A DNA stretch of 64,000 nt from Calditrichaceae bacterium (GCA_050173015.1 JBFXLE010000011.1:1-64000), one strand, 5' to 3'; shown: positions 13,833 through 58,408, counted from the first letter of the stretch. Program-made: numbers and translations. The notes: generated from the letters alone by a model not told the origin.

Positions 13833-15383
13833 ATGAAGAAAATTCTTTGGGCCGATGATGAAATAGATATGCTGCAGGCGCATGTTATCTTTTTACGTGA
13901 AAAAGGTTATGATGTGATGACAGTGACCAATGGCGATGACGCGATCTATCAGGTTCGTCATTTTGACTACGACCTTGTTCTGCTGGATGAGATGATGATG
14001 GGAAAGGACGGATTGACGACACTGAATGAGATAAAGGATTATTCACCACATCTTCCCGTTATTATGATCACGAAGAGCGAAGAAGAAAGTCTCATGGAAG
14101 ACGCGATCGGCAAACGCATCGATGACTATCTTACCAAGCCGGTTAATCCGAGTCAGATTTTGATGGCCTGTAAAAAGATCCTTGAGAAAAAGGATATTAT
14201 GAATGAAAAGATGAGTCAGCAGTATGCCATCGATGTATCACAGCTTTCCATGTCACTGATGAAAAATATGGACGCGAAGGACTGGATTGAGCAGGCTCTG
14301 AAGATTTTTCGCATGGATTTGAATCTTGATACATCCTCCGGTCAGGCATTCCGGCAGGTACTGTATGATCAAAGAAAAGAGAGTAATGTAGAATTTGGTA
14401 AATATGTGGAAAAAAACTATCAGGGCTGGCTCAGGAATAGCGATAATCGTCCTGATTTGTCGGTGGATTTAGTAAAAAAATATGTCATTCCGAATCTTAA
14501 AAAGAACAAGAAAGTTGTTTTTATAGTCATTGACTGCATGCGTCTTGATCAATGGCTTACGCTCGAACCGTTTTTCTACGAATTGTTTAAAATTGATAAG
14601 GAATATTATTATTCAATTTTGCCGACAGCGACGCCGTTTTCAAGAAATGCCCTGTTCAGCGGACTTTTTCCGGAGGAAATTGAGAAAATGTATCCGCAGC
14701 TTTGGTCCATGAATGAAGATGATGAAAGCCTGAACCGGTATGAAAAGGAACTGCTTGATCTTCAGCTCAAACGTAGTGGAATTCATATCGGAAATGATCT
14801 GAAATATGTGAAGGTAATGAATACCGAAGATATGAGAAATCTTGAAAAAGATATGCATAATTATCTTGAAGCGTCCATGCTGGCCATTGTTGTGAATTTT
14901 GTGGATATTCTCGCGCACAGCCGGTCAGATCTGCCGATTCTTAAGGATATCGCGCCCGATGAAGCCGCGTACCGCTCCCTCACACGCTCTTGGTTTGAGC
15001 ATTCGCCAATGATGGGTATCCTGAGAAAAATCGCGCAGTCCGACGCGACTGTTTTTTTGACTTCCGATCATGGCAGTGTCCGCGGTCTCCATGCGACAAA
15101 AGTAATAGGCGACCGTGAAACTTCCACAAATCTGCGTTATAAATATGGGCGGAGTCTGAAAGTGGATAAAAAGCATGCCGCGATCGTTCCCAACCCGTCA
15201 GACTGGAAACTGCCGAAACGCGGGATCAATACTCAGTACATTATTGCGAAGGAAGATTACTATTTTGTTTATCCCACCAATTACAATAAATATCTGAATC
15301 ACTACAAAGATAGTTTTCAGCATGGCGGTATCTCTATAGAGGAAATGATCCTCCCGATTGTCAAGCTCGAGGGAAAACAATAA
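13833..15383 (+). CDS. porX: PorX-type response regulator with PglZ/alkaline-phosphatase domain
   Basis: Receiver ILWADDEID...LLDEMM; PglZ motifs IDCMRLDQW, SILPTATPFSRNALFSG, NFVDILAH, TSDHG and FQHGGIS. Confidence 0.9.
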   Translation: MKKILWADDEIDMLQAHVIFLREKGYDVMTVTNGDDAIYQVRHFDYDLVLLDEMMMGKDGLTTLNEIKDYSPHLPVIMITKSEEESLMEDAIGKRIDDYLTKPVNPSQILMACKKILEKKDIMNEKMSQQYAIDVSQLSMSLMKNMDAKDWIEQALKIFRMDLNLDTSSGQAFRQVLYDQRKESNVEFGKYVEKNYQGWLRNSDNRPDLSVDLVKKYVIPNLKKNKKVVFIVIDCMRLDQWLTLEPFFYELFKIDKEYYYSILPTATPFSRNALFSGLFPEEIEKMYPQLWSMNEDDESLNRYEKELLDLQLKRSGIHIGNDLKYVKVMNTEDMRNLEKDMHNYLEASMLAIVVNFVDILAHSRSDLPILKDIAPDEAAYRSLTRSWFEHSPMMGILRKIAQSDATVFLTSDHGSVRGLHATKVIGDRETSTNLRYKYGRSLKVDKKHAAIVPNPSDWKLPKRGINTQYIIAKEDYYFVYPTNYNKYLNHYKDSFQHGGISIEEMILPIVKLEGKQ

Positions 15384-42526: not shown

Positions 42527-43885
42527 ATGAGCAGAAAAATAGTAGTCATCGGCGGTGTTGCCGCGGGTATGTCCGCTGCAAGCAGAGCCAGAAGAAATGA
42601 TCCTGATGCATCGATCATTGTCTTTCAGAAAGAAAACGCGGTTTCTTACGGATCCTGCGGTTTACCCTATTATATTGCTGACGATATCAAAGAAGCTGAA
42701 ACTCTGATTGCCATTTCAGCAGATGAATTCAGGCAGAAACGAAATATTGAAGTCCGTTTAAATCACGAGGGAATATCCTTTAATCCCAGGGAGAAGACGG
42801 TCGAAATACGAGATCTCGGGACAGGGATGATTCATGACTATCCTTATGATAAATTAATTATTGCCACCGGCGCGCGGGCGGCGTTACCTCCCATTCCCGG
42901 CAAAGAATTAAAAAATGTTTTTGTGGTCAGAAATCTGACCGACGGACAGAACATAAAATCACACATCGAGAATGATCGTCCGGCAACTGCGGTAGTTGTG
43001 GGCGGCGGCTATATCGGTCTGGAAATGGCCGAAGCTCTCTCAAGGCAGGGGCTTCGTGTTTCGGTTGTCGAGGCGCAGGAACGGGTTATGCTGAACATAG
43101 ACCCTGAATTATCTGAAAAAATTGAATCAGAAATGGAAGAAAAAGGGTGCAAAGTATATACTTCAAACGGTGTTCAGGCCATTCTCGGCTCCGATCGTGT
43201 AAATAGTGTGCGTTTAATGAACGGGGATGAGATTGCCGCTGACATGGTGATTTTATCGGTTGGAGTAAAGCCAAATGTTGAATTTGCAATTACCGGAGGC
43301 GTACGTACAGGAAAAACCGGCGCCATAGAGGTCAATCAGAAAATGGAAACAAATGTCCAGAGCGTATATGCCGCGGGTGATTGCGCGGAAGTAAAAAATC
43401 TGGTTACGAATAAAATGGATTATATCCCATTGGGGACAACAGCCAATAAACAGGGGCGGGTTGCGGGTGATAACGCCAGCGGCCGGTTTGCCAGATTTTC
43501 GGGTGTGGCAGGTACAGCGGTGGTGAAAATTTTTGATCTGGAGGTGGCGCGGACGGGAATCACAACCACACAAGCTCTAAATTTAAAGATGAATCCACGT
43601 TCCGTGATGATAACCGGTAAATCAAGGGCGGGATATTATCCCGGTAAAGAAGATATTACCCTGAAATTAATATTCCGTGGAGATAACGGCCGGTTACTCG
43701 GCGCTCACATGATGGGTAAAGAAGGGGTAGCAAAACGGATTGATGTTTTCGCGACAGCTTTACAGCAAAAAATGACAGTGATGGAAATCTCAGAACTGGA
43801 TTTGAGCTATGCTCCGCCGTATGCTCCGGTATGGGATCCGATACTGATCGCCGCAAATCAGGCAGCTAAGTCATTCGAAAAATAG
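42527..43885 (+). CDS. CoA-disulfide reductase / NADH oxidase family flavoprotein
   Basis: GGVAAGMSAA, SYGSCGLPY (single redox Cys), GGGYIGLE, YAAGD and YAPPY. Confidence 0.9.
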   Translation: MSRKIVVIGGVAAGMSAASRARRNDPDASIIVFQKENAVSYGSCGLPYYIADDIKEAETLIAISADEFRQKRNIEVRLNHEGISFNPREKTVEIRDLGTGMIHDYPYDKLIIATGARAALPPIPGKELKNVFVVRNLTDGQNIKSHIENDRPATAVVVGGGYIGLEMAEALSRQGLRVSVVEAQERVMLNIDPELSEKIESEMEEKGCKVYTSNGVQAILGSDRVNSVRLMNGDEIAADMVILSVGVKPNVEFAITGGVRTGKTGAIEVNQKMETNVQSVYAAGDCAEVKNLVTNKMDYIPLGTTANKQGRVAGDNASGRFARFSGVAGTAVVKIFDLEVARTGITTTQALNLKMNPRSVMITGKSRAGYYPGKEDITLKLIFRGDNGRLLGAHMMGKEGVAKRIDVFATALQQKMTVMEISELDLSYAPPYAPVWDPILIAANQAAKSFEK

Positions 43886-43892
43886 ACCGGTC

Positions 43893-44426
43893 TCATCGCT
43901 CAATATAATTTTTTAGCGAGGATAGATTCAAATTTATCAGCTCATTGAATGCGGGCCGGACAATTATAAAGTCCATTAGTTTTGACAGTACGGGAGGCGC
44001 CATATAAGTGATTTCCCAAATGGCTTCCGTGCTTCCGTCCGGTAGTGCTTCCAGTACAATGGACTGCCGGATATTATGAATTAACGATTTCCTTACCGTA
44101 TCGATCTGAGTAAAAGTGATCCGGTCAGATGACTCGTAAATTTCTATCCGTTCTTTAATTTTCAGCTCTCTTCCGATGATTGAATAATCTACAACACGCA
44201 GGGATTTATTAAGTGAGACTTCGGGATAAAATTCTATCTGCCGTATAGATTTATACCAATTCGAATATTCATTTGGTCCGGTAACCGCTGCCCAGACAAC
44301 CGTTTCGGGCGCCTCAATTGTAATCGATTTCCTTATACTGGTTTCGGGATTTAATATGATCCCGGTTACTAAAATGATAGAAAATAGTACGATAAGAATT
44401 GCTGAAACCACAGCTGAAGTTTTCAT
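43893..44426 (-). CDS. SRPBCC/START-like protein with N-terminal TM anchor
   Basis: SITIEAPETVVWAAV...W motif; ATGA overlap with the upstream gene's stop at 44423-44426. Confidence 0.75.
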   Translation of the reverse strand: MKTSAVVSAILIVLFSIILVTGIILNPETSIRKSITIEAPETVVWAAVTGPNEYSNWYKSIRQIEFYPEVSLNKSLRVVDYSIIGRELKIKERIEIYESSDRITFTQIDTVRKSLIHNIRQSIVLEALPDGSTEAIWEITYMAPPVLSKLMDFIIVRPAFNELINLNLSSLKNYIER

Positions 44427-45202
44427 CTGATTAAGAGCATCTTTTTGGTATGGATTTGTTTTTGTCCCGTCAGACGGTAATAATATAATCCTGACGCGGC
44501 CGGGATACCGTTTTCGGACTGTCCGTCCCATAGAACGGTGTGTCTGCCCGTATTGTATATTCCGTCTGCCAGGCTACGAACTAATCTACCCCGGCTGTCA
44601 AAAATTTGCAAACTAATTTTTTGAGGACGGTCCAGTGAGAATCTGATGGTGGTTTCGGGATTAAAGGGATTGGGAAAATTGTGATTCAGCACAAAACTGA
44701 TCGGATTTTCGGGACCGGAATCAACTGATGTTGCCAAAAGTCCGTCGATGGAAGCCCTGATATCGGAGATGTTTACGCCAAATCTTAAATATCTGATAAT
44801 TCCTTCCTGATCGACCACTACACTGTAATCATTAGCAACCTTATATGCAGCGCCGGTTTGTTGTCCGTTAAGCAGCAGAGGGTATTGAATCCCTGTACTG
44901 TTTTTAAAACTTTGGAGCTGTGAAGAGTTTCCGTTATAGTAATCAATTCCAACCGCCTGAAAAACGGTTTCACTATAATTATCCGCGATTTGGGTTTGCG
45001 TACTGCCGCCGGCAGCGAGACAAGACGGTCAATTGTATCCGACAAAAAATAGATAGATTACTTTGCCTTTATAATCACTGAGTTTAAATGTGCCTCCGTC
45101 CAGCCGGTTTAAAGTAAAATCGGGCGCCGGATCGCCTACCCCGGCAGTCAGTCCCGCTGAAAGGAGAAGTACCAATATTAACGGGAGAAACTTCGATTGC
45201 AT
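44423..45202 (-). CDS. Probable selenoprotein: signal peptide + AhpC/TSA-TlpA-like redoxin (UxxC) + Por/T9SS-type (FlgD-Ig) C-terminal domain, 259 aa
   Basis: Manual translation from ATG 45202 gives MQSKFLPLILVLLLSAGLTAGVGDPAPDFTLNRLDGGTFKLSDYKGKVIYLFFVGYN-TGA-PSCLAAGG..., continuing in frame into ORF 44423..44818 (NFPNPFNPETTIRF...TKKMLLIR). The only internal stop is at the catalytic Cys position. Confidence 0.85.
45002..45016 (-). promoter_or_regulatory. Candidate bacterial SECIS hairpin
   Basis: Minus strand GCTGCC-GGC-GGCAGT stem-loop; the G-starting loop begins 19 nt after the UGA. Confidence 0.6.
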
Positions 45203-45221
45203 TATATATCCTCATTGTATG

Positions 45222-46736
45222 TTAAAATAGACTATTTAAGCGAAATTCTAATCCTTCAAACGGCTGCACCTGATAACATATTCCGCCGGTACACGCATTA
45301 CCCCCGCGCCGTTTCCCATAGAATAAGGCGGTAGAATGATTCTGATTAATCTGATAATTCAGGCTGAATCCAAGCCATGATTTGTAAATATCATTTTGAA
45401 GCGGATTTAGGGTGTTGTTTTCTACCGGATCATTTGTCAGTTCAAACGCCAGACCACCCGCCAGATTCGGAGCGCGAGTGAACGACAAGCCAAGGTATCC
45501 GTTTTTTGTGGTGTGATTTTGCTCCTGATTAAATCGGTAGTTTCTGTCAAATTTTTGCGCCTGAATATCAACGGCAAGGCTCCAGATGCTGAGAAAATCA
45601 TGCTCCAGGGTGATTCCCGCTGTCATCCGCTCATAAACATCGATGATCGGATCCTCTGACCAGTTAATAAAAGGTCTGATCAGAAAGTAGTCATTCAGGT
45701 AATAATTGATGTCAGCATGATATTCCTGAAATGTGCGCTTAAAGCTGCCGAATTCATTAGTGGCTCTGGCGTGGTTTAGCGTTAATGTATTAAGTCCGTT
45801 GAGATTTATCAGGCTTTCGAGCTGAAAACCGCGTTCATCCTGCGGCTCGACCGAATGGGTGCTCCTGTTCAATAAAATGAAGGAATGCTCCCGGACAAGC
45901 TGCGGTGGATCATTAAAATTGAGAGTAAACTCATGATAATCCTTATATTCGGCTATTATGCTTATACGGTTATAACTAAAACTTACCGATGAATAGAAAG
46001 CATGCCGGCTTTCTGTGCCCAATCTAAAAGGATCATTCGCGTCATCCAAATCCTGGACATATTCCACGTAGTATTGACTTCCGGAGATACCGTTGCCACT
46101 CAGGTTGAACCCTCCGAATTCGGTGATCTCATTCTGGTAATCCTGACGGAGATACAACAGGCCGGGGGTCATTAAATTCCCTAAAGAAAAATTGATTTCA
46201 CCTGCCTGAAGCAGGTTTGGGCGTCGCAAATCACGGTCATTTGTCGGCGGGCGTGTTAAGTCAAGAGGTTTTCCGTATAATACTTTCGCCTGAAAAAAAT
46301 CTCCGGTATATCCCGCCGAAACTCCTTCTATATCCTTGAAGAAACCGTAATGTTGTCTTGTACCAATGTCTTCAAAAGTAACACCCGGTATCTCATAAGT
46401 GCGCAGCAGGAGACCGCGTCCGAGAATGTCAAAAAAGTTTCCAAGCCTGATCTGAAAATGGTTGTTTTGGAATTTTATATATTTTTGAGAGATTTGATTA
46501 TACCGGTGGTCATCATTGGTGACCTCGAACGATTCAGTACGCAGACCGGCACTGAAATTATTATACCGATAATCCAGATTCATCTGATTGTATAAATTGT
46601 AATGCGCGGGCTGGCCACTGTCCGGGATGTTTCCCAGTTGATATTCAAGACGGTTGGATACGGAGATTTGGCCTGATGTGATTGCGCCGGTGAATAGAAT
46701 CAGAACTAAAGGAAGCAAATAATACTTATTTTTCAA
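45222..46736 (-). CDS. DUF6029-like outer-membrane beta-barrel protein
   Basis: Signal peptide; GNFFDILGRGLLLR and EYKDY...FNDPPQLVREH; C-terminal YGKRRGGNACTGGIC...RLNSLF ending in Phe. Confidence 0.8.
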   Translation of the reverse strand: MKNKYYLLPLVLILFTGAITSGQISVSNRLEYQLGNIPDSGQPAHYNLYNQMNLDYRYNNFSAGLRTESFEVTNDDHRYNQISQKYIKFQNNHFQIRLGNFFDILGRGLLLRTYEIPGVTFEDIGTRQHYGFFKDIEGVSAGYTGDFFQAKVLYGKPLDLTRPPTNDRDLRRPNLLQAGEINFSLGNLMTPGLLYLRQDYQNEITEFGGFNLSGNGISGSQYYVEYVQDLDDANDPFRLGTESRHAFYSSVSFSYNRISIIAEYKDYHEFTLNFNDPPQLVREHSFILLNRSTHSVEPQDERGFQLESLINLNGLNTLTLNHARATNEFGSFKRTFQEYHADINYYLNDYFLIRPFINWSEDPIIDVYERMTAGITLEHDFLSIWSLAVDIQAQKFDRNYRFNQEQNHTTKNGYLGLSFTRAPNLAGGLAFELTNDPVENNTLNPLQNDIYKSWLGFSLNYQINQNHSTALFYGKRRGGNACTGGICYQVQPFEGLEFRLNSLF

Positions 46737-47232
46737 CTTTACTCTCCGGCGAATTTAATATTTTTAGGATTTCCTCTTCAATGATATTTTCATCTCCGGA
46801 ACGGTAGCCCTTGTGGATATAAATGATTTCACGATCACTGTTGATAATCAGCAGGGTTGGTATGTTGATGATGCCCAGTTCGGAGGCAAAGGAGCTGTTA
46901 GGGTCAAGAAGAATGGGATAACTTATTTTATAAGTCTTTGCGAAGGGTTTAATTTTGGCGGAATTACGCGGGCTGTCCACATTGATTCCGATAAACGCAA
47001 CGCCGCTATTTTTAAATTGTTCGGAAAGTTTGTTCAATTTTGGAAGCGCTTTCGCACAAGGTTTGCACCAGGTGGCCCAAAAATCAATAACAGTTACATT
47101 CCCGCCTTTCAGTTCAGAAAAATTTGTCCATTTATTGTCGATATTTTTTAATTTAAAATCAGGGATAGTTCTTCCGGCCAAGACGGTTTGCAACAGAATA
47201 AGAGTGAAATATATCATAAATCTGGAACGCAT
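46726..47232 (-). CDS. TlpA family disulfide reductase (exported thioredoxin)
   Basis: Signal peptide, PDFKL, IDFWATWCKPC, YPILLD and IPT. Confidence 0.93.
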   Translation of the reverse strand: MRSRFMIYFTLILLQTVLAGRTIPDFKLKNIDNKWTNFSELKGGNVTVIDFWATWCKPCAKALPKLNKLSEQFKNSGVAFIGINVDSPRNSAKIKPFAKTYKISYPILLDPNSSFASELGIINIPTLLIINSDREIIYIHKGYRSGDENIIEEEILKILNSPESKVEK

Positions 47233-47384
47233 ATTTGTTACCTCGTTCTATTTTATATATATTATTTACTAAAGAGTCTAAGAAAGACTAACGCAGGTTT
47301 TTCCCAAAACATTCTAATAACTTGAATTGTTCACGCTTATCATACTAATTTGATGAATCAAAGATATTTAACTTCAGATTGTTC

Positions 47385-47759
47385 ATGAAAAAAAAACTAA
47401 TCGAACTAAACGAAGGATTAGATAATCAGCATGTCAACCTGCTCTGTCTTGAAGTAGGAAGAGATATTCAGGTAATACTCAGCGGTGGTGCGTCCCATAT
47501 CGGCGCGATCGGATTGGGTGTGTGTTATGACAGTGATAAGGCAAACTCATCGGTAATTGCCGTTCACGGTCACAAAGAGGACGATCTTGTAAAAAAAGCG
47601 GCATACAGGTTAAGCAAGGCATTAAGAAGAAACGTAGCTGTTTCGGCCGGCATTCATTATGATGATTTAACCGGTAATGATATCTCTGCAATTCTCGCCA
47701 ATGCGGATCTATTGATTGACCGGTTAATAGAATTGCTCGAAAAAGACTCTAATCGTTAG
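47385..47759 (+). CDS. LpdD-like (prenylated-flavin chaperone / PAC-like) protein
   Basis: GRDIQVILSGG.SHIGA, GHKED and V.AGIHYD pattern. Confidence 0.7.
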   Translation: MKKKLIELNEGLDNQHVNLLCLEVGRDIQVILSGGASHIGAIGLGVCYDSDKANSSVIAVHGHKEDDLVKKAAYRLSKALRRNVAVSAGIHYDDLTGNDISAILANADLLIDRLIELLEKDSNR

Positions 47760-50310: not shown

Positions 50311-51663
50311 TTGTCCACGCTTATGGTTTCGATATCGGGCGTACGAGGAGAGATAGGAAGTACCCTTACACCTGAAATTATACAGAAATATACCCTTGCG
50401 TACGGAACATATTTAAACGGCGGTACAGTTATTGTCGGCCGTGATTCAAGAGTATCGGGACCCTTCGTCCTGTCAATCGTGAAGGGCTGTCTTATGGCAA
50501 CAGGATGCAAAGTGATTGATATAGGGATTGTACCGACGCCAACTGTGCAGATGTCCATTGAGCATTACAAAGCGGATGGCGGCATCGCCATCACCGCCAG
50601 TCACAATCCGGTTCAATGGAACGGATTGAAATTTATGGATTCAAACGGCCGGTTTTTAAGCCCGGAGAAAGCCGGACAGGTTTATGAAATGGCCGATAAG
50701 GGTGAATTCAGTCTAAAGGAATGGCAGTATCTTGGTGATGAAGTAAGTGATGAACGGGCAAATGAACGGCATATCGAAGCAGTGCTTAATCTTCCGTATA
50801 TTGATTTGCAGAAACTGCGTGAACGCGGATTCCGGGTTGTGGTAGATACGGTAAACGGCGCGGGCGGACTCATCATCCCTCAGCTGCTGCGCAAAATGGG
50901 TTGTGAAGTAATCGCCATAAATGATGAAGCAACGGGGCAGTTTTCTCACACCCCTGAACCGCTGCCTGAGAATCTTACCCAGTTGAGCCGGGCGGTAAAA
51001 GAAGCGGGAGCGGATCTCGGTTTTGCCGTCGATCCGGATGTGGATCGTTGCGCCATAGTGGACGAGAACGGTAATCCGATCGGGGAAGAATATACTCTGG
51101 CGTTGGCTGTAAAATTAATACTTTCAAAAAAAATGGGCCGTGTTGTGGTAAATATGTCCACATCGATGGCCTCGGAAGATATCGCGAAATATTACAATTG
51201 CATGTTCCTCCGCAGCAAAGTCGGGGAGATTAATGTTGCTGAAATGATGGCAGAGTATGACGCGATTATCGGCGGAGAAGGAAACGGAGGGGTCATCCTG
51301 CCGGAACTTCATCTTGGGCGTGACGCGCCTCTGGCGGTGGTTTTGACCCTGCAGCATCTGCTTGAATTTGGAGGGACTTTATCGGAACTGCATCAATCAC
51401 TGCCGCAATATACCATCGTGAAAATGAAAGTGGATATTGAAGGTATGAATCCCGAAACGGTTCTTGAGAAGTTAGCTAAAAAATATGCCAGTGAAGATAT
51501 CAATTTACTGGACGGAGTCAAAATTGATTTTGACAAAAGTTGGGTGCACCTTCGCAAGTCCAATACCGAGCCAATCGTGCGGGTGATGGCGGAGGCACCG
51601 ACGGATGATGACGCAAAGGCACTGGCAAATCGATTTATGGATGAAATTAAACAATTAATGTGA
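50311..51663 (+). CDS. Alpha-D-phosphohexomutase (phosphoglucosamine/phosphomannomutase-like)
   Basis: TASHNP, DPDVDR, KVGE, GGEGNGG and HLRKSNTEP; TTG start with GGGAGG. Confidence 0.9.
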   Translation: MSTLMVSISGVRGEIGSTLTPEIIQKYTLAYGTYLNGGTVIVGRDSRVSGPFVLSIVKGCLMATGCKVIDIGIVPTPTVQMSIEHYKADGGIAITASHNPVQWNGLKFMDSNGRFLSPEKAGQVYEMADKGEFSLKEWQYLGDEVSDERANERHIEAVLNLPYIDLQKLRERGFRVVVDTVNGAGGLIIPQLLRKMGCEVIAINDEATGQFSHTPEPLPENLTQLSRAVKEAGADLGFAVDPDVDRCAIVDENGNPIGEEYTLALAVKLILSKKMGRVVVNMSTSMASEDIAKYYNCMFLRSKVGEINVAEMMAEYDAIIGGEGNGGVILPELHLGRDAPLAVVLTLQHLLEFGGTLSELHQSLPQYTIVKMKVDIEGMNPETVLEKLAKKYASEDINLLDGVKIDFDKSWVHLRKSNTEPIVRVMAEAPTDDDAKALANRFMDEIKQLM

Positions 51664-51675
51664 TATTGGGAATTT

Positions 51676-51951
51676 ATGATTATCTGCAGAGTGCTCGGTG
51701 ATATCGTATCTACCGTAAAAAACAGCCACTTCGAAGGTAAAAAACTGATGATTGTCCAGCCTTTGGATTTGTCTGATCAGGCGGAAGGCAAAGCCTTCAT
51801 AGCGCTGGATACCGTTCAGGCGGGCATGGGTGATAAGGTGCTTGTAATGAGAGAGGGCGGCTCGGCGAGGATCATTTTTAACGATAATGAAATTCCCGTA
51901 CAGGCGGTAATTGTGGGTGTGGTGGACAATGTGGATATCGTTGAATCCTGA
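51676..51951 (+). CDS. EutN/CcmL family bacterial microcompartment vertex (pentamer) protein
   Basis: RVLGDIVSTVK, KLMIVQP, ALDTVQAGMGDKVLV, GGSAR and AVIVGVVD. Confidence 0.93.
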   Translation: MIICRVLGDIVSTVKNSHFEGKKLMIVQPLDLSDQAEGKAFIALDTVQAGMGDKVLVMREGGSARIIFNDNEIPVQAVIVGVVDNVDIVES

Positions 51952-52029
51952 TCCGGGTGAATAATTTGTGTGTGAAGAGAATTTAATATATAATAAAATT
52001 AATGGAATCATTTAAAATCAGGCTGAATT

Positions 52030-52887
52030 ATGTCAAGTATAACATCTGAAATCATCGAAAGTATTATATCTCAGGTCATTAGCGAATCGAATCTGGAGAG
52101 TTGCAGCAATTGCGAAGAATGTCCAAAAAGCTGCAAGCCATTCACTTATGAAGGAGCGAATGATCTGGTTTCATTTGGAGCGAGCCGTGTAGGTACCGTG
52201 GCGCCAAGTTGTCCTCCCAAATATGAGATGGCCAAATGGATTGATCACACGTTTCTAAAGCCCGACTCCACTAGGGACGACATCGAAAAAATTTGTGACG
52301 AAGCGCTTGAAAATAATTTTGCTTCTGTATGTATCAATCCTTTTTGGGTATCGCTGGCAAGCAGAAAACTCCGGAATTCAAAGGTTAAGGTATGCACGGT
52401 GGTCGGTTTTCCTCTTGGGGCGACTTTTCCCGAAATTAAAGCGGCGGAAACTCAGGCGGCGGTGGATCGCGGAGCCGAAGAGATTGATATGGTGATTAAT
52501 GTCGGCGCCCTGAAATCTGGTGATTATGACACGGTTGAACGTGATATCCGCGCGGTTGTAAGAGCAGCGGGACGGCGTGTTGTAAAAGTGATCATCGAAG
52601 CCTGTCTTCTTACCGACGAAGAAAAAGTGACCGCCTGCGTGATATCCCAAAGAGCTGGAGCAAACTTTGTTAAAACTTCGACCGGATTCAGTAGCGGCGG
52701 CGCGACCGTTAAGGATGTAGCGTTGATGCGTCAGGTGGTCGGTCCGCGGATGGGTGTTAAGGCAAGCGGTGGTGTTCGTACCTACGATGAGGCCTGCAAA
52801 ATGGTTGAAGCCGGAGCCACAAGGATCGGCGCTAGCGCGAGTGTGGCAATCGTAAGCAATGGTCAGGCGAAATCTACAGATTACTGA
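52030..52887 (+). CDS. deoC: Deoxyribose-phosphate aldolase with an N-terminal extension of about 65 aa
   Basis: [35 protein letters not shown] and RIGAS. Confidence 0.96.
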
Positions 52888-52994
52888 TCAATCCTCAAGG
52901 CGTGATTTATTAAGTTACTCCGGCATATGACCGGGCCGGGAATCCTATTCATCAATCAGACGACGAATATTTATAAAGGAAAGAATTATAGACT

Positions 52995-54311
52995 ATGACG
53001 GCATACGAGATTATCAGCAGGAAACGGGACGGGGGAGAATTGACAGATCAGGAAATCACTTATATGATCGACGGTTATACACGGGGCTCCATTCCCGATT
53101 ATCAGGTTGCTGCCTGGCTCATGGCTATTTTCTTTCAGGGAATGAATACAAGGGAAACGCTGGCTATAACAAATACGATGCTTCATTCCGGTGAATCAGC
53201 CGATTTAAGTCAGGTACCGGGTATTAAGGTTGACAAGCACAGCACCGGCGGAGTGGGTGATAAGGTCTCCATCATTCTTGCTCCAATAGTAGCGGCGGCA
53301 GGCGTGCCGGTACCGATGATATCGGGTAGAGGGCTTGGGCACACCGGAGGTACTTTGGATAAACTCCAAAGCATCCCGGGTTTCCGTGTGGATTATTCCA
53401 TTGATGAGTACCGTAAAAAGATTAAAAAAACCGGAGTGTGTCTGATCGGTCAGACAGCCTCTCTTGCCCCGGCAGATAAAAAGATTTATGCTTTGCGTGA
53501 CGTGACCGCGACCATTCAGTCCATTCCGCTGATTTCGGCAAGTATTATGAGCAAAAAACTGGCCGAAGGGATTGACGCGCTGGTACTGGATGTGAAAACC
53601 GGAAACGGCGCATTTATGCAGTCGTATGAGAAGTCGGTTGAACTGGCGAAAAGCCTGATCGCCATAGGTGAGAAAGCGGGTAAACCGACGGTTGCTTATA
53701 TCACTAACATGGACGAACCATTGGGTAAAACGGTCGGCAACTGGCTGGAGATGGTAGAGTGCTTTGAATGTATGCAGGGCGATGGTCCTGATGATCTGAT
53801 GGAAGTGACTCACTATCTTAGCGGAACAATGATTTATTTGGGTAAAAAAGCCGATTCCATTGAAGATGGCATAAAAATCTCACAGGAAATGATCAAATCC
53901 GGAAAAGCGTGGGAAAAGTTTCTGGAAATTGTTGAAGAACAAAATGGTGATGTATCTTTTGTGAAAAAACCGGAGCAATATCCGGCCGCAAGTTTTCAGA
54001 CCGATGTTCTTGCCGGGAGTGACGGATTTATTTCGGGGATCAACGCGTTGGAAGTAGGACTGACGGCAATCTCCCTGGGAGCGGGAAGAGAAAAATCAGA
54101 AGATGTTATCGATCCTAAAGCAGGGATTATACTGCATAAAAAAACGGGTGACAAGGTCATAAAAGGTGACAAATTAATGACGGTTTATACTGATAAAGAG
54201 CATGTGATTCAATCAGCTGTTGAGCGGCTTTCAGAGTCGGTATCCTATTCCGATACACCGGTTTCGAGGGAAAAGATGATACTTGATTATCTTGATAAAA
54301 AAGACTTATAA
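52995..54311 (+). CDS. pdp: Thymidine/pyrimidine-nucleoside phosphorylase
   Basis: DKHSTGGVGDK, SGRGLGHTGGTLDKL, LRDVTAT and SIMSKK. Confidence 0.95.
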   Translation: MTAYEIISRKRDGGELTDQEITYMIDGYTRGSIPDYQVAAWLMAIFFQGMNTRETLAITNTMLHSGESADLSQVPGIKVDKHSTGGVGDKVSIILAPIVAAAGVPVPMISGRGLGHTGGTLDKLQSIPGFRVDYSIDEYRKKIKKTGVCLIGQTASLAPADKKIYALRDVTATIQSIPLISASIMSKKLAEGIDALVLDVKTGNGAFMQSYEKSVELAKSLIAIGEKAGKPTVAYITNMDEPLGKTVGNWLEMVECFECMQGDGPDDLMEVTHYLSGTMIYLGKKADSIEDGIKISQEMIKSGKAWEKFLEIVEEQNGDVSFVKKPEQYPAASFQTDVLAGSDGFISGINALEVGLTAISLGAGREKSEDVIDPKAGIILHKKTGDKVIKGDKLMTVYTDKEHVIQSAVERLSESVSYSDTPVSREKMILDYLDKKDL

Positions 54312-55954: not shown

Positions 55955-58408
55955 TTACTTTATCAGCATCATTTTTCTAATCGAACTTTCGCGGTTATCA
56001 ACGGACAGTTTATAAAAATAAAGCCCGCTTGATAAATTTGAACCGTCAAATTTTACCTGATAGGTTCCGGTGGCCTGATTTCTATCGACCAGGCGCGCCA
56101 CAGTTTGACCAAGGATATTATAAACAAGCACACTTACATGGCCGGGTTTGGAGATAGAATATTTGATGGTCGTTTCCGGATTAAACGGATTCGGATAATT
56201 TTGATTTAATTTGAAATCCGCTATAATAAAGCCGTCATCATGAACCGCAGTGGGAATTCCAAATTCACTGGCGCCGATATCAATCCGGTTGCCGTAGATC
56301 CTGTCCACGCCATTTATCGCGTACTGATACAAATTTAAACCGGTTGTATCCGGGGTACCGGCATCGATGCACGCGGAACCCTCCGAAAGGTTGTATAGAA
56401 GGGAATCGGCGAATTCCGGGGCGACGTCCAGACAATTGGAATAAATCCCGCTGTACTCAATTCCGGCTCCGTCACCGCTGAAACCGGAGGAATCACCCTC
56501 GATGTCACAGTAATAAAAATCAGGATCACAGGTAGTTTCCAACCGGATCTGTGTGCTTTCATTGCCATAAATAATGTTATTGTACAACTCATTTACAGAA
56601 GTTGCCCGGAAACTAATTCCTCCGGATTGATTTTCTACTATCGTATTGTTAATAAAACGAGAATTGGACTGATAGCTGTATATACCATAACTGGAATTAT
56701 TGAAGATCAAATTGCTGACAAAATCCGCCTGATTGGAGTATCCGGTATAAACGCCGGATGATGAATTATTGAATATTTTATTGTTATAGATCCAGGGTTG
56801 AGAATCGCTCCCGCCAATCAACATACCGTAACCATAATTATCATGAATACCGCAGTTTTCGATCACAGGCGAACTATTATCAATATAAACGGCCGCATTG
56901 ATCCCGTGATTAAAACGAATATCTGAATGACGAATAAGCAATTTTGAAAATCCTGTGATGTAAAATGCCCCACCATCTTTGTTGATATTGTTGGGATCCC
57001 CGTAAGGATTTCCGTATTCTATAACGCAGTAGGAAAAAACCGATGTGTCGTTGGCCGCAGGAGTTTGATTAAATAAAATCCGGTTCCAGCCTTCTTGCTG
57101 ATCCGCGGCGGTGAACTTAATAGAATCACTCTCCGCGCCTTCCGCGATAAGAGTCCCCTGCACATCGATATAGAAAAATCCCTGGAATATTATTTCGACA
57201 CCGGGTTCGATAGTCAGTGTGGTCCCGTCTTTAATAATGATATTTCCATCGATCAGATAGGGTGAATTTTCTTTCCCCCACACCCCCGCAACGGTATCAG
57301 TTTTGACATAATATTCGTACGCGCCGATATCGATCAATCCATTGCTAAATCGTTGTTTACCGGATAGATCAAGAACAGGTAAGGAAGCGTCATAAATATC
57401 GTTATATCCCTTGTCCCGGCAGGGAGAAAGCTTCTGAAGGGCATAGGGGGCATCTCCGGTATTCATAAAGAGAGGATCACTATCAAGGCAATTGCTATAG
57501 ATTCCCGTAAATTCTGCGCCTGCGCCGTCTCCGTTAAAATATTCTTTTCCGCCCATGATATTGCAATTGTAAAAATTAGGATCACAGGTTGTTTCCAACT
57601 GAATTTGTGTCCCGGTATTAGCATAAATAGTATTATTGTACAAATTATTTACCGAATTCGCGCGGAAAAAAATTCCTCCGTTTTGATTTTCTACTATCGT
57701 ATTGTTAATAAAACGAGAATTGGACTGATAGCTGTATATACCATAATTGAAATTATTGAATATAAGATTATTGACAAAATCCGCCTGATTGGAGTATCCG
57801 GTATAAACGCCGGATGATGAATTGTTGAATATTTTATTATTAAAAATCCCGGGTTGAGAACCGCTCCCGCCAATCAACATACCGTAACCATAATTATCAT
57901 GAATACCGCAGTTTTCGATTACAGGCGAAGCGTTATCAATATAAACGGCCGCATTGGTGCCATGATTCTGACGAATATCGGAATGACGAATGCTCAGTTT
58001 TGAAAAGCCAGTGATGTAAAAAGCGCCGCCGTCCTGACTGTTTGAATAAGGTTTACCGTATTCAATAATACAGTAATCGAACAAGGAACTGTCATTCGTA
58101 GCGGGCGTCCCGGAGAAAAGAATCCGGTTCCACCCCTCCGTTATGTTGGATGCCGTAAACTTGATCGAGTCACCGGCGGTGCCCACTGCCTGAACGGAAC
58201 CCTTGACATCAATCATGTAAAATCCTTCTGCAATAACGGTTGTACCGGGATTGACCCGCAGATGAACACCGTCTTCAATTAAAATGTCACCTTTTACAAA
58301 AACCGTGTCCGCATCCCACGCTGAATCGGTTGAAATCGTTCCGGAAACATCGATAGATGAGGCCAGAGTAAAAGATGTCAGACATAATACCAGTAAAATT
58401 TTGTACAT
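55955..58408 (-). CDS. Secreted right-handed parallel beta-helix protein with two duplicated modules and a Por/T9SS-type C-terminal domain
   Basis: Signal peptide; Asn-rich beta-helix repeats; SPCRDKG...IDIGAYE module ends; LNQNYPNPFNPET...RKMMLIK. Confidence 0.88.
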   Translation of the reverse strand: MYKILLVLCLTSFTLASSIDVSGTISTDSAWDADTVFVKGDILIEDGVHLRVNPGTTVIAEGFYMIDVKGSVQAVGTAGDSIKFTASNITEGWNRILFSGTPATNDSSLFDYCIIEYGKPYSNSQDGGAFYITGFSKLSIRHSDIRQNHGTNAAVYIDNASPVIENCGIHDNYGYGMLIGGSGSQPGIFNNKIFNNSSSGVYTGYSNQADFVNNLIFNNFNYGIYSYQSNSRFINNTIVENQNGGIFFRANSVNNLYNNTIYANTGTQIQLETTCDPNFYNCNIMGGKEYFNGDGAGAEFTGIYSNCLDSDPLFMNTGDAPYALQKLSPCRDKGYNDIYDASLPVLDLSGKQRFSNGLIDIGAYEYYVKTDTVAGVWGKENSPYLIDGNIIIKDGTTLTIEPGVEIIFQGFFYIDVQGTLIAEGAESDSIKFTAADQQEGWNRILFNQTPAANDTSVFSYCVIEYGNPYGDPNNINKDGGAFYITGFSKLLIRHSDIRFNHGINAAVYIDNSSPVIENCGIHDNYGYGMLIGGSDSQPWIYNNKIFNNSSSGVYTGYSNQADFVSNLIFNNSSYGIYSYQSNSRFINNTIVENQSGGISFRATSVNELYNNIIYGNESTQIRLETTCDPDFYYCDIEGDSSGFSGDGAGIEYSGIYSNCLDVAPEFADSLLYNLSEGSACIDAGTPDTTGLNLYQYAINGVDRIYGNRIDIGASEFGIPTAVHDDGFIIADFKLNQNYPNPFNPETTIKYSISKPGHVSVLVYNILGQTVARLVDRNQATGTYQVKFDGSNLSSGLYFYKLSVDNRESSIRKMMLIK

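Follow-up and report, generated by a model that had tools for sequence, protein, structure and literature searches.

Four minus-strand genes were analysed in a 64,000-nucleotide (nt) stretch of DNA from a Calditrichaceae bacterium (GCA_050173015.1 JBFXLE010000011.1:1-64000), the whole of which is called the window here. They encode a TlpA/ResA-like thioredoxin-fold protein (T), a beta-barrel protein of family DUF6029, a redoxin with a UxxC site (R) and an SRPBCC protein. An earlier note on this DNA had proposed that the Cys pair of the barrel shuttles reducing equivalents from the periplasm to a redoxin at the cell surface. Everything that it described in the four-gene cluster was found at the coordinates that it gave. 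The features of the first three genes were as follows.

46726..47232 including the stop, minus strand: T, 168 amino acids (aa), with a Sec-type signal peptide of ~20 residues; Pfam matches AhpC-TSA (6.5e-27) and Redoxin (8.7e-26)
47056..47070, minus strand: active site of T, WCKPC (W55-C59), with the sole two Cys of T (C56 and C59)
45222..46736, minus strand: DUF6029 outer-membrane beta-barrel, 504 aa plus stop, with signal peptide 1-22 and a C-terminal Phe (LNSLF)
45276..45293, minus strand: CTGGIC, holding C482 and C487, the barrel's sole Cys, one on either side of the G484-G485 turn in the last long beta-hairpin
44423..45202, minus strand: R, with a signal peptide, a ResA-like thioredoxin-fold domain (~44765-45139), a T9SS (type IX secretion system) type-A C-terminal domain (~44426-44677) and a TGA stop at 44423-44425
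45029..45031, minus strand: in-frame TGA, read as U58, the selenocysteine of UPSC, with the frame conserved on both sides; the sole Cys of R is C61
45002..45016, minus strand: candidate bacterial selenocysteine insertion sequence (SECIS) hairpin, GCTGCC-GGC-GGCAGT, 12 nt after the TGA

The genes were tightly packed. The stop of T and the start of the barrel gene overlapped by 11 nt (46726-46736), the barrel gene and R were 19 nt apart (45203-45221), and R met the SRPBCC gene in an ATGA overlap (44423-44426). The barrel gene started with TTG, with GGAG 8 nt upstream. When Cys were counted in the window's proteins, T (C56/C59), the barrel (C482/C487) and R (U58/C61) each had one redox pair and no other Cys, and the SRPBCC protein had zero.

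The barrel, the two redoxins and their conserved neighbourhood

The barrel protein matched PF19494 (DUF6029) in three stretches with 84.9 bits (gathering cut-off 27; E 6.7e-24). DUF6029 was the only Pfam family found at E <= 0.01, with no Wzi model among the matches, and no NCBIfam model matched. The transmembrane Cys-pair domain of DsbD/CcdA was matched in the barrel by neither Pfam nor NCBIfam. AlphaFold2, supplied with a 104-row alignment, returned a model with a predicted local distance difference test (pLDDT) of 95.0, a predicted template modelling score (pTM) of 0.90 and ~24 wall strands, in which strands 479-483 and 486-490 formed the Cys hairpin. The barrel-like character given to this protein in the earlier note was therefore borne out by a confident prediction of a wide barrel. 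A Foldseek search of PDB yielded generic barrel matches only, led by FimD and PapC, two 24-strand ushers (TMq 0.53-0.55).

A word-indexed search found 132 relatives of the barrel; with an exhaustive search the yield was 641 cluster representatives (E <= 0.001). PF19494 was carried by 120/120 of the relatives listed, and the closest relatives among the matches listed came from Calditrichaceae. C482 and C487 were invariant in 47/47 relatives. The pair was kept in 103/104 full-length representatives, with 23-50% identity to the barrel, and in 80/80 genome loci, so it is a conserved feature, as the earlier note had required of it. The surrounding motif RRGGxAC..G.CY was likewise kept in 80/80 loci. 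In these 80 loci, the CxxC dipeptide of T and the hairpin sequence showed no covariation beyond clade structure. No further Cys past residue 25 was present in 88/104 representatives, and the last residue was F in 72/104. No fusion of T to the barrel was found among 120 near-length relatives listed (403-555 aa). The barrel was also absent from longer proteins (883-2520 aa) at E <= 0.001, a null result that is weak evidence.

T combined the traits of TlpA/ResA/CcmG-type proteins, namely a thioredoxin fold, a WCxxC site and an export signal. Its N-terminus was hydrophobic and a plain signal peptide was present in T throughout the loci. Thioredoxin_8 was also among its Pfam matches. C56, P58 and C59 were invariant across 73 orthologs, whose mean column identity was 54%; T is a distinct, tightly conserved clade. 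The best NCBIfam match was the ResA subfamily with 97.5 bits, below the cut-off of 170, and the TlpA equivalog model gave 48.5 bits, below the cut-off of 230. T fell below every NCBIfam equivalog cut-off and was not placed as an ortholog of Bradyrhizobium TlpA or Bacillus ResA. When the T-family profile was compared with PDB, an uncharacterised thioredoxin-like protein (2m72) was matched at 3.4e-34, followed by ResA at 1.2e-29.

R matched Pfam AhpC-TSA at 8.2e-16, with a Redoxin/AhpC-TSA domain. A profile of 94 R domains matched an uncharacterised thioredoxin-like protein (2ls5) at 9.2e-26 and ResA at 8.1e-19 in PDB. Peroxiredoxin was rejected as the primary reading of R, as peroxiredoxins were matched at ~2e-9 or weaker compared with 8.1e-19 for ResA. 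The profile matches thus showed T and R both to be ResA/TlpA-like oxidoreductases, not peroxiredoxins.

The column of the in-frame TGA held TGA in 15 R genes, including that of the window, and Cys (the first of CxxC) in 92 R domains. The TGA-bearing genes came from Calditrichota, KSB1, Cytophagia, Gemmatimonadota and unassigned metagenome-assembled genomes. The dipeptides of R were of the CPxC type, with CPHC in Balneolota and UPxC where TGA was present. By inspection, 11/15 TGA genes had a stem-loop with a 3-5 nt loop beginning 11-16 nt past the UGA. Over the 48 nt downstream, the mean folding energy was -13.2 kcal/mol in the TGA genes versus -7.2 in the 92 Cys forms, with G+C also higher in the former (0.58 versus 0.46). 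The window's own hairpin had a folding z-score of 0.57, no better than shuffled sequences. No selenocysteine genes were found among the 52 window open reading frames (ORFs) scanned, and no tRNA genes were found in the window. The Rfam scan of the window gave zero matches, and so no curated SECIS or other RNA.

A scan of species-representative genomes found 253 relatives of the barrel, and the best 80 loci of the 253 were examined with phmmer, using six-frame translations and the window's proteins as queries. These loci came from Bacteroidota (35), Balneolota (19), Calditrichota (14), Rhodothermota (3), Gemmatimonadota (1) and unassigned genomes (8). In 79/80 loci a T ortholog directly preceded the barrel on the same strand; the exception, L057, was cut at the barrel start. 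The gap between T and the barrel was 661 nt in L049 and 191 nt in L012. Neighbouring T orthologs, mostly with TWCKPC, were matched at E <= 4e-37, whereas other TlpA-like genes in the same loci had E values of at least 3e-13. The R-type redoxin was present in 78/80 loci, and the other two (L046 and L060) were cut where R would be. R either followed the barrel downstream or stood upstream of T, and it was often doubled, in the form of two genes or of one tandem two-domain protein. The tandem form was a lipoprotein of ~323-335 aa with CPxC in each domain and was found in nine loci (L040, L041, L043, L050, L053, L054, L055, L058 and L069). Thioredoxin-fold neighbours of DUF6029 homologs, for which the earlier note had suggested a survey, were therefore the rule. 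Since the adjacency of T and the barrel repeats in nearly all of these independent genome loci, the gene arrangement is far beyond chance.

Flanking genes were not common to different phyla (53 ORFs of seven loci), and the regulators adjoining the module varied by phylum (AraC, two-component and Crp). The SRPBCC gene was present in 7/81 loci (window included) and the CoA-disulfide reductase, the convergent neighbour of the cluster, in 5/81, all of them in Calditrichota. Because the flanks differ between phyla and these two genes are confined to Calditrichota, the conserved unit is T, the barrel and R; the SRPBCC protein and the CoA-disulfide reductase are lineage-specific companions and not part of the core module.

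Predicted complex of T with the barrel and sorting of R

A complex of the barrel (residues 23-504) and T (residues 20-168) was predicted, each with its own alignment, together with three controls. The interface score ipSAE was 0.92, 0.90 and 0.90 (median 0.90), compared with 0.02 for the best control. The ipSAE mark was reached by 116/157 solved complexes and 2/215 mismatched pairs, a calibration that is rough here as our own alignments were used. The runs agreed in at least 94% of contacts, the partner pLDDT was at least 86, and 155-165 contacts were predicted. The complex model thus supports binding of T to the barrel. We know of no solved complex of a thioredoxin in a barrel that could make this prediction mere memory.

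On the barrel side, the predicted interface comprised the termini (23-29 and 501-504), every short inter-strand turn, two loops (102-118 and 276-285) and residues 484-486, precisely the three between C482 and C487 that were counted as touching T. On the T side, contacts fell on 53, 55-57, 60-61 and 64, which belong to the WCK site with its helix, and on 85-102, 111-123 and 138-150; residues 65-84 and 151-168 lay outside the interface. In this model T would lie within the barrel lumen, entered from the periplasmic end with the active site first, and its back and C-terminal helix would face the periplasm.

The T9SS sorting domain TIGR04183 was found on R with 37.3 bits (cut-off 23), and the Pfam model Por_Secre_tail gave 25.8 bits, slightly below its cut-off of 27. 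R with a T9SS tail was present in 45/80 loci, and a further 21/80 loci had an R of lipoprotein type in which two or more of positions +2 to +7 were Asp/Glu. Copies of R without a tail were mostly lipoproteins. In Bacteroidota, a lipobox was present in 23/29 tail-less copies, and two or more Asp/Glu at +2 to +7 were counted in 21/23 of these on reading by eye (19/23 by script), with C-SKDEED and C-SGDESD as typical forms. The available text of PMC5080379 describes a Bacteroidetes lipoprotein export signal that leads to the cell surface, with the forms K-(D/E)2, Q-A-(D/E)2, SDDDD and SDDFE. The acidic stretch of the lipoprotein R resembles this signal. Surface targeting of the second redoxin, as proposed in the earlier note, was thus backed by two different sorting signals, the T9SS tail and the acidic lipoprotein signal. 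In a tree of 94 R domains, built from 148 columns only and of limited support, the rows grouped by phylum, and tail and lipoprotein forms were intermixed within phyla. Because of this intermixing the anchor type of R was taken to have switched repeatedly, the starred branches forcing at least five changes.

An extra lipoprotein R, with a Ser/Thr/Gly-rich linker and without the acidic motif, stood beside the tailed R in Balneolota and Calditrichota (e.g., L021 6583-7017 and L006 2473-2907). This copy may be oriented towards the periplasm and might be the donor that T otherwise lacks.

Two further T9SS-related genes were present in the window. A gene for PorX, the T9SS response regulator, was found at 13833-15380 on the plus strand (NF052313, 710.6 bits; cut-off 300), indicating that the organism has T9SS regulation. 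A second T9SS cargo, encoded at 55958-58408 on the minus strand, was a parallel beta-helix protein of 817 aa that carried a choice-of-anchor Q domain as well as a T9SS type-A tail. No T9SS translocon genes were found within the window.

A proposed relay across the outer membrane and its alternatives

In our judgement the chances are evenly balanced that T, the barrel and R, a three-part module found across the Fibrobacterota-Chlorobiota-Bacteroidota (FCB) group, form a thiol/selenol-disulfide exchange relay that spans the outer membrane. T would be exported to the periplasm and would lodge in the barrel lumen from the periplasmic side with its active site first, like LptE in LptD or MtrA in MtrB. 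The last hairpin of the barrel, with its sole two Cys at the tip, would contact T there. R would be tethered on the outer face, either by a T9SS tail, as in the window, where the attacking residue would be selenocysteine, or by a surface-export lipoprotein signal. Exchange would run from the CxxC of T to C482/C487 of the barrel, then to the UxxC of R and on to extracellular or surface substrates, with the barrel acting as a sheath and probably as the middle carrier. Surface or secreted proteins, extracellular disulfides and oxidants would all be candidate substrates of R, and the data discriminate none of them. Redox activity of the hairpin pair, a reductive and outward flow, and docking of R on the barrel are inferences of ours. 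A broader proposal falls a little short of an even chance and is offered tentatively: a dedicated TlpA-type plug would pass electrons by way of the barrel's hairpin to a surface redoxin anchored to lipid or lipopolysaccharide, and this porin-thioredoxin conduit, dating back to an ancestor of much of the FCB group, would be the first to move reducing equivalents over a bacterial outer membrane by thiol/selenol chemistry.

The relay of the earlier note stands in part. The conserved pair, the barrel fold, the redoxin neighbours, the sorting signals and the predicted interface shared by T and the hairpin agree with it. However, support is only partial because the prediction makes T a lodged plug instead of a free periplasmic donor, because the SRPBCC protein and the CoA-disulfide reductase occur in Calditrichota only and are not conserved parts, and because a static disulfide fits one representative of the barrel family, P0161.

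Several observations weigh against the proposed relay. P0161, the sole representative of the 104 without the pair, has Tyr and Phe in its place, both Cys being lost together, which is the replacement expected of a purely structural cross-strand pair. In the predicted complex the active site of T would point into the lumen and would therefore be unreachable from the periplasm in the lodged state, so that recharging of T is unexplained. No DsbD/CcdA gene was found beside the module in the 53 flanking ORFs of the seven loci or in the 52 window ORFs. The CPxC/UPxC dipeptides of R leave the direction of flow unfixed. The acidic export signal was present in 0/15 lipoprotein R copies of Balneolota and 1/6 of Calditrichota; a tailed R was also present in 19/19 and 13/14 loci of these phyla, respectively. 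Conserved residues were not enriched at the predicted interface, either in T (11/53 interface residues versus 19/96 others, p = 1.0) or in the barrel (7/78 versus 24/404, p = 0.32); this missing conservation neither helps nor hurts.

The first alternative is that the barrel is a mere sheath, in which a lodged T exchanges directly with the surface R through the open outer mouth and C482-C487 is a static staple or cap. Cys pairs that lie across two strands next to a turn of two residues classically form structural disulfides. The substitution in P0161, the predicted reach of T to loops at the far end of the barrel, and the evidence from synteny and sorting, which fits equally well, are consistent with such a sheath. 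However, retention of the pair in 103/104 representatives and 80/80 loci is unusually strict for a loop staple. The RRGGxAC..G.CY motif is strictly kept too, and the model places residues 484-486, between the two Cys, in contact with T. We regard the sheath as unlikely.

The second alternative reverses the relay. R at the surface would oxidise or sense extracellular thiols or oxidants, and its state would pass inward through the hairpin to T, whose docking or release would gate the wide channel or signal to the periplasm. T is nearest to reductive ResA/TlpA proteins, and no conserved signalling partner was found in the seven loci. Selenocysteine at the attacking position, read in the 15 TGA-bearing R genes, is typical of reductases and peroxidases. 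These points make inward flow or sensing distinctly improbable, although R has CPxC sites, with CPHC, the DsbA motif, in Balneolota, although T is plug-like in the lumen with its 155-165 predicted contacts, and although AraC, two-component and Crp regulators adjoin the module in different phyla.

It is very improbable that the barrel is a transport pore for a polysaccharide or another polymer, with T and R only servicing its folding or cargo. DUF6029 is a family without an assigned function, and the only literature mention that was found proposes polysaccharide export. The available text of that paper likens DUF6029 to the Wzi barrel: with HHpred, many of 28 barrel-only Wzi homologues near OPX genes matched DUF6029, and a role in polysaccharide secretion was suggested (PMC9603273). 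The width of the barrel, ~24 strands, would also suit a pore. However, Pfam gave DUF6029 alone and no Wzi model, Wzi was absent from the top 50 fold matches listed, and the sole conserved neighbours were two redoxins. No OPX, Wzx or Wzy genes were found in the 53 flanking ORFs of the seven loci or near the window's module, and a polysaccharide-export role of DUF6029 is not supported by the neighbourhoods here. The last alternative, that a TlpA paralog and a redoxin stand beside an unrelated porin by chance and that the TGA marks a broken gene, is already contradicted and next to impossible: TlpA-like genes are numerous in these phyla and extra unrelated copies occur in some loci, but T and R accompany the barrel in 79/80 and 78/80 loci of five named phyla with unrelated flanks, the genes overlap or are closely spaced, the TGA aligns to Cys with the frame kept on both sides in 15 genes, and the complex scored 0.90 versus 0.02.

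In function the nearest counterpart of the proposed relay is the inner-membrane module of DsbD/CcdA, ResA and TlpA, in which a chain of Cys pairs runs through a membrane protein to thioredoxin-fold proteins across the membrane. The two are alike in function alone: DsbD and CcdA are alpha-helical inner-membrane proteins, whereas here the membrane protein is an outer-membrane beta-barrel without homology to them, the donor is predicted to lie inside it, and the acceptor would be outside the cell. The barrel's Cys pair, which is not of the thioredoxin type and lies on neighbouring strands, presumably recalls DsbD-alpha. In architecture the nearest counterparts would be MtrCAB and LptD-LptE. Shewanella MtrCAB would be similar in that a wide barrel sheathes a periplasmic redox protein that faces a lipid-anchored redox protein at the surface. 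However, electrons hop between haems in MtrCAB, thiol/selenol-disulfide exchange is proposed here, and there is no sequence relation. LptD-LptE has a soluble-fold plug in the lumen of a large Cys-bearing barrel, and here T is predicted to touch every turn. LptE differs in being a lipoprotein without a redox site, and LptD moves lipopolysaccharide, whereas the plug proposed here carries a CxxC site and an ordinary signal peptide.

To our knowledge, thiol-disulfide relays are known only as far as the periplasm (DsbD and CcdA), and the outer-membrane electron conduits described to date use haems (Mtr-type). Nothing relevant was found when the literature was searched for a thiol route across the outer membrane, for a thioredoxin in a barrel or for this module. 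If the proposed relay is true, it would define an envelope machine of a new class that conducts thiol/selenol redox chemistry through an outer-membrane barrel, and DUF6029 would gain a function. It would also explain the source of reducing power for surface thioredoxin-like proteins and for Cys-dependent T9SS cargo in the oxidising exterior of Bacteroidota and their relatives. With only three genes, each encoding one redox pair, and with 253 relatives found, the module is both compact and widespread, and genetic and biochemical tests would therefore be straightforward.

A surface protein comparable to R is HBP35 of Porphyromonas gingivalis. The available text of PMC2907840 describes it as a cell-surface protein with a thioredoxin motif, a C-terminal domain that is conserved, and thioredoxin activity in vitro. 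Compared by description only, HBP35 would resemble R in being a surface thioredoxin with a T9SS tail (PMC2907840). It differs in binding hemin, and no barrel or TlpA partner is mentioned in the available text (PMC2907840).

Companion genes and the surroundings of the module

The two Calditrichota-specific companions in the window were the following.

43893..44426, minus strand: SRPBCC protein with an N-terminal membrane helix, its start overlapping the stop of R; Polyketide_cyc2 at 1.9e-9 (38.4 bits; cut-off 27.4)
42527..43885, plus strand: CoA-disulfide reductase-like flavoprotein, convergent, without a signal peptide; NF007123, 471.4 bits (cut-off 458)

The longest ORF of the SRPBCC gene was 43893-44531 on the minus strand, and a start at 44531 would give an overlap of ~105 nt with R. 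The short form with the ATGA overlap was favoured because the homolog matches begin at the ATG at 44426 (e.g., L001 2870-3400, 177 aa).

A signal-less redoxin with an FTCNHCP motif was encoded ~1-2.4 kb downstream of the barrel, in convergent orientation, in five loci of one Bacteroidales clade (L034, L039, L047, L048 and L051); that of L034 matched Pfam Redoxin at 1.6e-26. Such a redoxin might act as a cytoplasmic partner, unless its position is a coincidence.

Divergent from T in the window, a protein like bacterial proteasome-assembly chaperones (PAC_bac, 2e-28) was encoded at 47379-47759 on the plus strand; the same neighbour was present only in L005, that is, in 2/81 loci. Genes for a GlmM-like mutase, DeoC and a pyrimidine-nucleoside phosphorylase adjoined the module at 50311-54308 on the plus strand. 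They did so likewise in L009, a locus from Calditrichia, indicating local synteny within the class.

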